64,000 nucleotides of DNA from Pseudovirgaria hyperparasitica (taxonomy: Eukaryota). Both the position numbers and the translations under genes were made by a program. Positions 10,001 to 12,599 of the stretch are shown in pieces (positions within the stretch are counted from its first letter, which is position 1; the number at the start of each line of letters is the position of its first letter). Below the pieces are notes generated by a model. It had not been told where the DNA came from, made no database searches, and worked only from the letters and a program-made list of their open reading frames with translations. The stretch lies in NCBI GenBank assembly GCA_010093815.1, contig ML996567.1; one strand, 5' to 3'.

Positions 10001-10209
10001 TACTTGCTGTACGGACGGTTTCATACCAGCCGTACAGTAAGCAGGTATGTGGAGACGCGGTGAAACCAGGGGGTTGCAGCAGCAGTCAGCGGTGTATCGG
10101 CGCAATGTGTGGTCGAATTTCTTCCTGGAGAATCGCAGAGACAAGCAGCTGGGGGGGCAGGAGATCAACTCGACCAGAAAGACAGAGGAATATGTACAAA
10201 CAGTTTGAA

Positions 10210-10233
10210 GATGATGATGATGATGATGATGAT
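10210..10233. repeat. (GAT)8 microsatellite
   Basis: Read directly from the sequence. Confidence 0.9.
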
Positions 10234-10492
10234 GACGGCGGCGGTGCAGATTTGGGGGTGATGAGGAAGTTGAAGTGTTGGAATAGTAGTCGAAAATAGC
10301 GACAAGGGGGGCCTGGGGGCAGCCAAGTCCGCTTTGTGCCAGGAAAAATGGGCAAAAAAGCCCCCGAAGCCGGCTGGGGTTGGTGCCTTGTGCTGCCTCT
10401 TTTTTTCTCCACCGCCGCCTCCACTGGGTCGAGTGCCTTAATTAGTCCCTTGCTGGTATGTATGTAGTAGTGTAGTATGTAGTGTAGTCCCC

Positions 10493-10528
10493 CCAGTCCG
10501 CCAGTCCACCAGTCCACCAGTCCCCCAG
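10493..10528. repeat. Tandem 8-mer (CCAGTCCN) x4.5 in the HAC1 promoter
   Basis: ccagtccg ccagtcca ccagtcca ccagtccc ccag. Confidence 0.85.
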
Positions 10529-10726
10529 GTCCATAAAGGCCACGTTTCGCCCTCTCTTTTCCATCCCCTTCCATCTCCTCACACACACACACACACCAGC
10601 AACAACAACAACAATACACAGTCATCTCCCTCAAGGCTGCCACTTTTTGTACCTGTTTGCATATTTATCCCCGCACTTCCTGCACGTCCTGGTTCCAGGT
10701 TTTGTTTTGTTTCCACTCATCCCACA

Positions 10727-11673
10727 ATGTCGACTACCACCACCCTACTCAACTCCTTGACACAAGATCTCCTGACCCACAACACCTCGACTCCCTCTCC
10801 ACCGCAACAGACAATCAAGCTTGAGGACATCCAGAATTCCCCGATGCCTCAAACTCCGCCTTCATCAGGCACAATGCCTGGTTCGCTGTCCAAACCTCCT
10901 ACATCCCACCCCAAGGATCAGAAGACACAGCCTAAGAAAAGAAAATCATGGGGCCAAGCCCTCCCCGAACCCAAGACCAACCTCCCTCCTCGTAAGCGAG
11001 CAAAGACCGAAGACGAGAAGGAACAAAGACGCATCGAACGTGTAAAGCGTAACCGTCTCGCCGCCCACAACTCCCGCGAGCGTAAGCGTCAAGAGGTCGA
11101 TGAACTCCGAGACGAGAGAGACCATCTCGCCCGTGAGAATTCTGCTCTGCGGGAAATCATTGCGAAATACGCCCAAGTCGGTGTCAAGATCGAACTCACC
11201 GATTCTCAGCAAAATGTCCTCGACTCCACTGAGACTGCCGATTGGATGACCATGAATCCCCGCAAAGCCTCGTACGACACCTCCGGCCCAGAAAGCTCGC
11301 CGTCCCTTGGCAGCATTGAATCCCCTACCGATACCACCTCCCAGCCGGCAACCCCAGCGATGATGTCCATTCCTGAGCCCGATTTGACACAACATTCTGC
11401 TGCAATGTTGTGTGACCTGCAGTGTCAGTCGGAGCTCAGCAATTGGCATCTTCACTTGGCAAGCCTGGCTACGACAACTTTCTTACGATGGACCCAATCA
11501 TCCGCGACGAGCCTCTCTTCCAGGACAATCTCTTCGACCTTTCCACGGATGACGACAGCGCCTCTCACTTTATGAACTTGAACTTTCTCTCCTCCGTCAA
11601 CGAGTTCACGGAAGCTGGAAACGAGCCCTTCTTCGAGTCCTTTGTCAACTTTCCTGAACAACGCACTGCATGA
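10727..11673 (+). CDS. HAC1: bZIP unfolded-protein-response transcription factor Hac1/HacA. Unspliced form is 282 aa (stop at 11575); IRE1-spliced form is 308 aa (stop at 11673)
   Basis: KKRKSWGQ.LPEPKTNLPPRKRAKTEDEKEQRRIERVKRNRLAAHNSRERKR basic region and DLTQHSAAMLCDLQCQS intron signature. Removing 20 nt switches to an acidic/aromatic C-terminal frame. Confidence 0.96.
11400..11419 (+). other. Non-spliceosomal 20-nt IRE1-cleaved intron (CTGCAATGTTGTGTGACCTG)
   Basis: Two stem-loops with 7-nt CNG|CNGN loops: acaacatt-CTG|CTGC-aatgttgt and tgac-CTG|CAGT-gtca. Confidence 0.93.
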
Positions 11674-11688
11674 GCTTCTGGCTTGCTC

Positions 11689-11732
11689 GCCGAACATTGG
11701 CGCAACAACTTCTTGTTAGCGACGGTTCTGGC
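11689..11732 (+). promoter_or_regulatory. HAC1 mRNA 3' bipartite element (3'BE)-like hairpin
   Basis: TGGCGC (11698-11703) and GCGAC (11719-11723) are brought together by the inner stem aacaa/ttgtt (loop cttc) and the outer stem gccgaac/gttctggc. Confidence 0.7.
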
Positions 11733-12368
11733 ATTATAGCATCCGGGTTCCCGCCTTCGTTTGTTCTTGAGTTTTGACAAAGTACTTGGGAATGTCCGTT
11801 ACCAACACCTACGACTCAACGACAAGAGAATCAGTTCAAGTCAGGGGAGGCGCTCGGCTGCCATCACCGGCGATGCAGCATACATTCGTGGGGCCAGCAA
11901 GGAGACCACGGCTTTCGTTTTGGGTGTTTCACTAGCGAGCATTTTGGCGTCCTCAAAAAAGGATTTTGACGCATTACGTTTGGGCAAGCTACTCGGGCCC
12001 TTGGGGATACCGGCACTATCACGAAAGCGCTTCACGGTAGTGTCTTCGAGTATCGGAGTTGTAGGAGTATCGTCTCATGAAGACCACATGTAGTACCACG
12101 AAATATATGAACTGTATAATAGAGCATCTACTCTACCTCGTGATCTCGTGATCTATGTGATTGTCTATCCTGACCGTGATGGCGTTTGCTAATACGAGAT
12201 GAAAGTGTTTGTTTTGCTTATTCGTTGGTACAGTATCCATTTGCAGTTTCCCATCCCCGCAAAATGTGCGCCTGGCTAGCACAAGCGAACCGAACCAATG
12301 ATTATCGTGACGGGGAACTATATCAATAGTGGAGCCAAAAGCGGGAAGCGCGACCAGAATGATCAAAG

Positions 12369-12376
12369 TGACGTCA
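12369..12376. promoter_or_regulatory. Perfect CRE/ATF palindrome TGACGTCA, 224 nt upstream of the small gene at 12600
   Basis: Exact motif match; function is inferred. Confidence 0.4.
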
Positions 12377-12599
12377 ACCGCTTCTGCTAATTAGCCACCT
12401 ACCTCCGCAACCTCAGAAGGATCTTAAGAAGAAGAGCTCTCCATTCTCTTCCAGTAGTAGACACATCATTTCTTCTGAGCAACACAGTCGAGCAAGCAGT
12501 CTTTCTACTACAAACTCTGTTTCCAAAACTCGATCGGAACTGTCCCCCAATCAAAGATCAACGTCAAACATCTCCAATCAAATCAATCAATCAATCAAC

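Follow-up and report, generated by a model that had tools for sequence, protein, structure and literature searches.

In the 64,000-nucleotide stretch of contig ML996567.1 from Pseudovirgaria hyperparasitica (GenBank assembly GCA_010093815.1), here called the window, we examined the 3' end of a gene that, judged by its sequence, is hacA/HAC1 (plus strand, ATG at 10727). We found that its mRNA carries a hairpin at 11689-11732 in which two short words, GGCGC and GCGAC, face each other on the stem. With a probability of about 0.75, this element is the conserved 3' hairpin of the hacA/HAC1 mRNA and the filamentous-fungal counterpart of the 3' bipartite element (3' BE) of yeast HAC1. The two elements are probably homologous. 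Sequence comparison with relatives showed that the hairpin is conserved, covaries and lies on the sense strand, and that it is kept whether or not it is translated. An original prediction, made from the letters of the window, had placed a HAC1 3' bipartite element inside a decayed copy of the HacA C-terminal peptide. The region proved to be no copy but the gene's own 3' end.

The predicted letters and stems of the hairpin were confirmed in the sequence at 11689-11732. The minimum free energy (MFE) and centroid folds agreed and gave a single long irregular hairpin on the plus strand. The 5' strand of the outer stem, GCCGAAC (11689-11695), paired with 11725-11732 in both folds and aligned with the covarying outer stem of relatives. 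It is followed by an internal loop, ATT (11696-11698), which holds one of two bases that are extra in the window; the covariance model described below aligned an inserted "a" here, and relatives have one unpaired base before GGCGC. Motif 1, GGCGC (11699-11703; TGGCGC from 11698), pairs with motif 2, GCGAC (11719-11723), as G-C, G.A, C-G, G-C and C-G. Between the motifs lies the distal part (11704-11717), where AACAA (11704-11708) and TTGTT (11713-11717) formed five base pairs in the folds around the loop CTTC (11709-11712). The second extra base falls in this part, and the model placed the insertion next to the apical loop; the distal stretch measures 14 or 11 nt in relatives and 15 nt in the window. 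A bulged A (11718) precedes motif 2, and Dothideomycete-like relatives have A or T there. The 3' strand of the outer stem (11724-11732) consists in the folds of G at 11724 and then GTTCTGGC (GTTC, a bulged T and GGC) at 11725-11732. In general terms, an outer helix is followed by a GGCGC/GCGAC helix, in which a G.A mismatch interrupts four Watson-Crick pairs, and then by a small loop on a distal stem of 3-5 bp.

Relatives were obtained by scanning metagenome contigs with a HacA protein alignment, which gave 80 loci (L001-L080) with 36-68% identity to the window protein. After removal of identical sequences, 49 distinct copies including the window were aligned with 32-nt flanks (alignment A2). 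The 48 relatives without the window formed alignment A4, the source of the covariance model R1. An alignment with 14-nt flanks (A3) split the GGCGC word and was discarded. Two loci with the hairpin at the contig end (L038 and L076) and two chance regex matches (L033:1092 and L075:1591) were left out.

A canonical hairpin was present in 70 of the 80 metagenomic hacA loci, 236-404 nt behind the intron. This number is made up of 69 matches of R1 at E<=1, among which the seeds match by construction, and of L076 at its contig end. Over all loci (296,543 bases, both strands), R1 gave one match per matching locus, at the expected place. Among the 75 loci that reach this place, 70 had the canonical form, four had AGCGC..GCGA[CA], and one had no hairpin. 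Four loci (L021, L056, L062 and L073) end before it, and in L078 neither intron nor hairpin was found. L051 and L058 carry the hairpin with their intron not located, and their frame was left unscored. In the alignment, both GGCGC and GCGAC were invariant in 49/49 distinct sequences.

The alignment and covariation check proposed in the original prediction was performed with RNAalifold and with shuffles that were not corrected for kinship, and the stems were found to covary. The RNAalifold consensus consisted of the outer stem and the motif helix, with double changes in 4/8 pairs. At columns 28-61, for example, the pair types were CG (19), GC (12), AU (3) and UA (2). Over 11 named pairs, 88.1% of cells were paired, compared with 75.9 +/- 1.1% after shuffling, and the covariation score was 0.340, compared with 0.157. 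None of 500 shuffles reached either observed value. When one strand was slid by 1-3 columns, 30-49% of cells were paired.

The distal stem was scored by script, as its register shifts between lineages. The 31 distinct distal stems held 109 bp in total, compared with 70.0 in shuffled sets (0/5000 reached the observed total). At least 3 bp were formed in 29/31 of them, compared with 45% of chimeras made from two different sequences. The stem types included AAC/GTT, ACC/GGT, GAC/GTC, AGC/GCT, AGCA/TGCT, GTCC/GGAT, GCCC/GGGC and TGTG/TACG, in addition to AACAA/TTGTT in the window. The same architecture appeared in the folds of 12/12 representatives, 11 of which had negative z-scores, from -1.4 to -3.2. 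U.G pairs were frequent, with 17 at columns 31-58 and 11 at columns 39-50, and these would be C.A mismatches on the other strand. Therefore, the structure points to sense-strand RNA and not to DNA.

A second small hairpin was observed behind the main one in some relatives. It is formed by two self-complementary [AG]GCGCT copies 2-12 nt apart, 19-22 nt behind GCGAC (e.g., AGCGCTcaAGCGCT). It was found in 10 of 55 distinct downstream regions (L032, L034, L036, L040, L047, L048, L052, L057, L059 and L060). It is limited to one clade, whose stops have moved into or before the main hairpin, and it is absent from the window.

The window was then a test case for the model built without it. In the 64 kb, on both strands, the sole match of R1 was 11666-11755, with 33.6 bits and an E-value of 7.3e-06 (rough, owing to a short calibration), over the full model (1-88). 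R1 treated both extra bases of the window as insertions at unpaired places, one between the outer stem and U-GGCGC and the other adjoining the apical loop. Among the relatives, those of the L031 type read GCCGGCTC-A-GGCGC..GCGAC-GAGCC-T-GGC. Compared with them, the window kept the GCC/GGC pairs and the bulged T, and the three inner pairs were replaced on both sides (GAAC/GTTC).

Next to these structural data stands the coding status of the hairpin. The intron was removed by script and the spliced frame translated, which gave a readable frame in 68 loci. The hairpin was translated in 48/68 loci, where the stop lies 36-72 nt after GGCGC. Tails encoded by translated hairpins include ..LQSASGATSVSDEALAAGQL, ..HAGSGATSLVSDEPGIAAE.. 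and ..LQPSLGASTSRCDGQSIAASG. In 14/68 loci, the stop lies inside the apical loop, as in GGC GCA GCT TAA TGC AGC GAC, and in 6/68 it lies 9-51 nt upstream of GGCGC. In all six of these upstream-stop relatives, GGC is still in the old frame, at offsets that are multiples of three. The window has its stop 28 nt before GGCGC, and its GGC no longer lies in the spliced frame (relative frame 1); it is the only one of the 66 sequences scored for which the latter holds. The 24 bases between the stop and the T of TGGCGC agree, within a base, with the 25 nt given in the prediction. The window adds a separate case to those with an upstream stop, and among them it alone has a frameshift as well. That the motifs are conserved where the tail is non-coding, as the prediction required, was seen in the 14 loci with a stop in the loop and the six with a stop upstream, all of which keep the hairpin.

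A tree of the protein segment from the bZIP domain to the intron (58 rows, short alignment) placed the window on its own long branch (0.72), with a highest identity of 55%. The window fell inside none of the other early-stop groups. On this tree, five changes were needed for "stop upstream" and four for "stop in loop". One Eurotiomycete-like group is mixed: the hairpin is translated in L037, L069, L077, L079 and L080, whereas the stop is a TAA in the loop in L071 and lies 39 nt upstream in L075, a spliced transcript contig. The stop shifts in L071 and L075 are either very young changes or errors of single metatranscriptome contigs.

The prediction had given the HacA tail as a feature of Aspergillus and Trichoderma proteins. 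We found it, in the form ..QPS.GAST.RCDGQ.IAA.., in the proteins of Aspergillus niger, A. fumigatus, A. flavus, A. nidulans, Penicillium, Talaromyces, Monascus and Uncinocarpus. Proteins of Didymella, Pyrenophora, Exserohilum and Glonium end in ..SGA...[CS]DE..AA.., and the Dothideomycete form is ..SASGA...[CS]DEALAA... The expectation that the tail codons hold both motifs also proved correct: in each of the 48 loci with a translated hairpin, GGCGC and GCGAC belong to the spliced frame. The residues between GA and [CS]D differ widely yet appear as complementary codons (T..V, P..G, S..G and A..A). This variation suggests that the RNA largely sets what the HacA tail peptide can be. Most of the Pleosporales-like relatives also have an unspliced frame that is open through the hairpin and encodes proteins of 405-470 aa, so that the hairpin is read in two frames (unspliced: ..CRVPLA..ATRLSQ..). 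Conservation reported for the product of the unspliced frame may partly reflect RNA constraint.

In the window, remnants of the tail had been predicted in three frames. Two of them, PNIGATTS (from 11690) and SDGSGIIAS (from 11718), read as stated and align with tails such as SGATSLVSDEPGIAAE. The third, ASGL (from 11674), found no support. It is probably no remnant, because the sequence that aligns with gcc ggc tca (A-G-S) of the relatives is gcc gaa cat t, on the 5' side of the outer stem. A 19-nt insertion, in which gcttctggc and gcaacaact together would be the old A-S-G-A-T-T, was considered and dropped; gccgaaca aligns and pairs like gccggctca of the relatives. The sequence, the transcript contigs and model R1 agree that a stop and two 1-nt insertions broke the tail while motifs and stems persist.

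The reality of the stop was examined with contigs from four public runs (X1-X4) that cover the stretch. X3 and X4 come from a second sample (S2) and study. The comparison was made at the level of contigs. The contigs of X1 and X2 were identical to the window and are possibly its source. The kind of X3 and X4 is unrecorded and no run is on record as RNA; these two were taken as RNA because the 20-nt IRE1 intron is missing, depth is uneven and the X3 contig ends at 12100. Over 10625-12100, the X3 and X4 contigs (depth 123 and 206) showed 0 differences from the window besides the 20-nt gap. No other gap was present; therefore, there is no further intron, and the spliced frame stops at the TGA at 11671-11673. 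Assembly error had been named as what would refute the prediction. Since the contigs of the second sample match letter for letter, assembly error is excluded, at the level of contigs, as the source of the stop and of the local indels. The transcript contigs include the hairpin region. Those of S2 show the spliced form only; rarer variants drop from contigs, so complete splicing is not implied.

The gene around the hairpin was identified from its protein and its intron. Exon 1 (10727-11399, plus strand) runs from the start codon to the IRE1 5' cut and encodes the bZIP domain, as supported by Pfam (bZIP_1, E 8.7e-09; bZIP_2, E 4.8e-07) and by homologues. There were 1429 homologues of the HacA protein at E<=1e-5, the best about 50% identical. 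The best ones come from Dothideomycetes and unnamed contigs, and several carry the JGI label "transcriptional activator HAC1". The unconventional IRE1 intron of 20 nt (11400-11419) was placed by the CNG|CNG cleavage rule, Rfam and the contig gap. Rfam family RF04247 (Hac1/Xbp1 intron) matched 11371-11441 with 51.9 bits (gathering score 41, E 7.7e-09). The intron has twin hairpins with CNG|CNG loops, and the twin-loop fold had a z-score of -3.79. In the contigs of X3 and X4, a stretch of exactly 20 nt is missing at 11397 (aligner gap 11397-11416), whereas those of X1 and X2 retain it. This gap equals the intron at 11400-11419, because CTG repeats at both cuts. Over 10400-12400 at E<=10, Rfam gave no family beyond the intron, and no model reached threshold for the 3' element.

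Exon 2 (11420-11673) continues the spliced frame to ..NFPEQRTA and the TGA at 11671-11673, as seen from the open reading frame (ORF) at 11416-11673, its translation and the identical contigs. The spliced protein has 308 aa. The unspliced frame (ORF 10442-11575; protein P0001, 282 aa) stops at 11573-11575, upstream of the hairpin, and closes 114 nt before the outer stem. The 3' untranslated region (UTR) was set to 11674-12100. Its end is approximate, a weak hint from the 1501-nt X3 contig, which stops at 12100 with no X3 depth beyond. In the leader and the region upstream of the gene, simple repeats were observed at 10208-10235 and 10578-10612, (GAT)n and then (CA)n and (CAA)n. The aligner skipped 10570-10624, so the contigs give no position for the transcript's 5' end. 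At 10458-10488 there is a 31-nt tagtgtag-type repeat. Each of the four runs also has it on another contig, unrelated to the first, where it differs by 2 nt (GT), and it is a short dispersed repeat.

The 3' BE of S. cerevisiae HAC1 reportedly goes back to Aragon et al. 2009 (Nature 457:736). Published sources describe it as an extended stem-loop of the 3' UTR, on whose distal stem two short conserved motifs are juxtaposed (PMC6116095, PMC2905327; also PMC11880305). It is further described as needed to recruit translationally repressed HAC1 mRNA to Ire1 clusters (PMC4279078) and as bound by Pal1 and Pal2 (PMC13703316). We found in the window the features given for it in these sources: an extended stem-loop downstream of the IRE1 intron and in the 3' UTR of a HAC1 mRNA, with two conserved motifs facing each other on the distal stem. 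The two systems also differ. The S. cerevisiae intron is described as 252 nt long and as blocking translation by pairing with the 5' UTR, whereas the window intron has 20 nt. The yeast element is placed at nt 1134-1192 of the gene, whereas that of the window starts 18 nt behind the stop. Ire1 targeting is shown in S. cerevisiae, and in the window the function would follow by analogy.

Two further fungi are relevant here. In Komagataella (Pichia) pastoris, a budding yeast with a HAC1 intron of 322 nt, a stem-loop of the HAC1 3' UTR has been recognised because it resembles the yeast 3' BE (Guerfal et al. 2010, PMC2905327). For Neurospora crassa hac-1, in the Pezizomycotina, one sentence says that the yeast 3' UTR element is apparently conserved (Montenegro-Montero et al. 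2015, PMC4488935); the passages available from that paper give no structure, coding overlap, covariation or test. Another close system is the in-frame hairpin of most Pezizomycotina hacA genes (loci L001-L080, model R1). The window shares its invariant words, three helices and bulged base. The in-frame hairpin is translated as ..GA...[CS]D.. in 48/68 loci, whereas that of the window is untranslated; it has two extra unpaired bases, its distal stem is longer (5 bp) and its outer stem is re-paired. In metazoans, XBP1u performs the task proposed here for the hairpin, bringing unspliced mRNA to IRE1 at the endoplasmic reticulum, but does so through its nascent peptide (a hydrophobic region and a translational pause), independently of the 3' UTR (PMC4891664). 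In the window, by contrast, the conserved unit is an RNA fold that outlasts the loss of translation.

Several points weigh against the identification of the hairpin as the counterpart of the yeast 3' BE. The window's own fold is unexceptional, with z-scores of -1.10 (11671-11750) and -1.89 (11685-11737), and the case beyond chance rests on the relatives because the window fold alone is unremarkable. The relatives are unnamed metagenome and metatranscriptome contigs, many of them close kin, so the shuffle controls are inflated by relatedness. The loci were first picked by a regex for the two words, which makes motif codon counts circular; these were used as background codon usage only. The words are also not absolutely invariant, since L036, L047, L052 and L053 have AGCGC..GCGA[CA] and L068 is without the hairpin. 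The yeast motif letters given in the prediction (UGGCGCG and GCGAC) were found in none of the sources searched, so that the identity rests on architecture, position and the one N. crassa sentence. In coding lineages, the peptide may be under selection too. No functional datum for any filamentous fungus was found in the literature searched. It is unlikely, but deserves consideration, that the hairpin is a conserved functional RNA with another role. It might, for example, control decay or nuclear retention of the mRNA, take part in forming the 3' end, or make ribosomes pause where it is translated. Conservation and covariation are silent on its task, and the region of the yeast 3' BE has itself been tied, in the parts seen, to 3'-5' decay of pre-HAC1 (PMC6627864, PMC5814838). 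Ribosomes must moreover cross the hairpin in 48/68 loci, unlike in yeast targeting, which is described as needing translationally repressed mRNA (PMC4279078). However, the position behind the intron, the extended stem and the two juxtaposed invariant words match the targeting element as published, and pausing is impossible as a role for the window and for the six loci whose hairpin is untranslated.

The remaining explanations concern whether there is a maintained RNA structure at all. The window might be a neutral relic in which the tail became non-coding only recently, so that motifs and stems have not yet eroded. The modest single-sequence z-scores of the window would fit this, as would the six upstream-stop relatives, which keep GGC in the old frame as young nonsense mutations would. 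We regard it as very unlikely, since the window lies on the long, isolated branch described above (0.72, highest identity 55%). It has had time to gain two indels and to change three outer-stem pairs on both sides relative to L031-type relatives, yet 10/10 motif bases and the pairing are intact, both indels are at unpaired places, and several independent lineages with early or in-loop stops keep the hairpin. It is highly improbable that the conserved unit is a DNA palindrome, for example, a protein-binding site in the 3' end of the gene. Inverted repeats are symmetric on DNA, and GGCGC and GCGAC are near-complements. However, on the other strand the many sense-strand U.G pairs (17 and 11 at two pairs) would read C.A. 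The G.A mismatch and the bulges are conserved, and the stems are free to vary if pairing is kept, which a sequence-reading protein would not tolerate. We give next to no probability to an artefact, in which either misassembly created the stop and frameshifts or one more intron puts the frame right, so that the tail would in fact be translated. The data are contigs, and the window may derive from X1 and X2, but the contigs of X3 and X4, which come from a different sample and study, match over 10625-12100, and the IRE1 intron is their sole gap, with no other joint.

By comparison with the relatives, the history of the hairpin reads as follows. In the ancestor, as in most living relatives, the RNA was written inside the last 14-24 codons of the spliced frame, dictating the HacA tail. 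In the window lineage, a TGA arose 28 nt before GGCGC. The old frame was then broken by two extra bases, one of them in the internal loop and the other adjoining the apical loop. The motifs and all three helices were retained, with compensatory changes, and the hairpin now lies wholly in the 3' UTR, as in budding yeasts. The window had been proposed as a natural experiment suggesting that the tail is a by-product of an overlapping RNA element. This was supported, more by the relatives than by the window alone, and the window is not unique in this respect.

Both ORFs of the window (stops at 11573 and 11671) end before the hairpin, and therefore no ribosome needs to unwind it and it can keep its fold, as in yeast. 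By analogy with S. cerevisiae, the folded hairpin would bring unspliced mRNA to clustered IRE1, directly or via RNA-binding proteins, and this recruitment would, on the same analogy, make removal of the 20-nt intron efficient. In coding lineages, the hairpin would stay folded only while the mRNA is poorly translated. A long repressive 5' UTR has been reported, in the passages seen, for hacA mRNA in unstressed Aspergillus, and folding only under poor translation would fit it.

As a wider and tentative proposal, to which we give slightly less than an even chance, the 3' bipartite element may be ancestral to ascomycete HAC1 and may have stayed inside the frame in Pezizomycotina for hundreds of millions of years. 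The HacA tail ..QPS.GAS...CD..IAA.. would then be mainly a translated hairpin and not a protein motif, and the stop would have slid into or before the hairpin several times harmlessly. The window would be the most advanced case, yeast-like and untranslated, with the frame lost and the fold kept. What is already known, as far as the accessible sources tell, is the 3' BE in yeasts and one mention of its presence in a filamentous fungus. Open full texts yielded no report of the element being inside the hacA frame, none that explained the tail by it, and none of a stop repeatedly crossing it; subscription papers (Aragon 2009 with its supplement, Saloheimo 2003 and Mulder 2004) may bear on it.

How hacA mRNA reaches IreA in filamentous fungi is unsettled in the literature searched, in which the parts of reviews seen discuss a switch in the 5' UTR and a possible role of the unspliced protein. 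The hairpin, with canonical copies of its two words in 70/80 loci, is a concrete, mutable candidate for the targeting of hacA mRNA. What constrains the conserved HacA tail, and part of the long conserved unspliced-frame ORF overlapping it, may be the RNA and not the function of a protein. Such a constraint matters for engineered "constitutively active" hacA alleles intended for higher protein secretion. The early-stop lineages, the window above all, provide ready-made controls that separate the RNA from the peptide.

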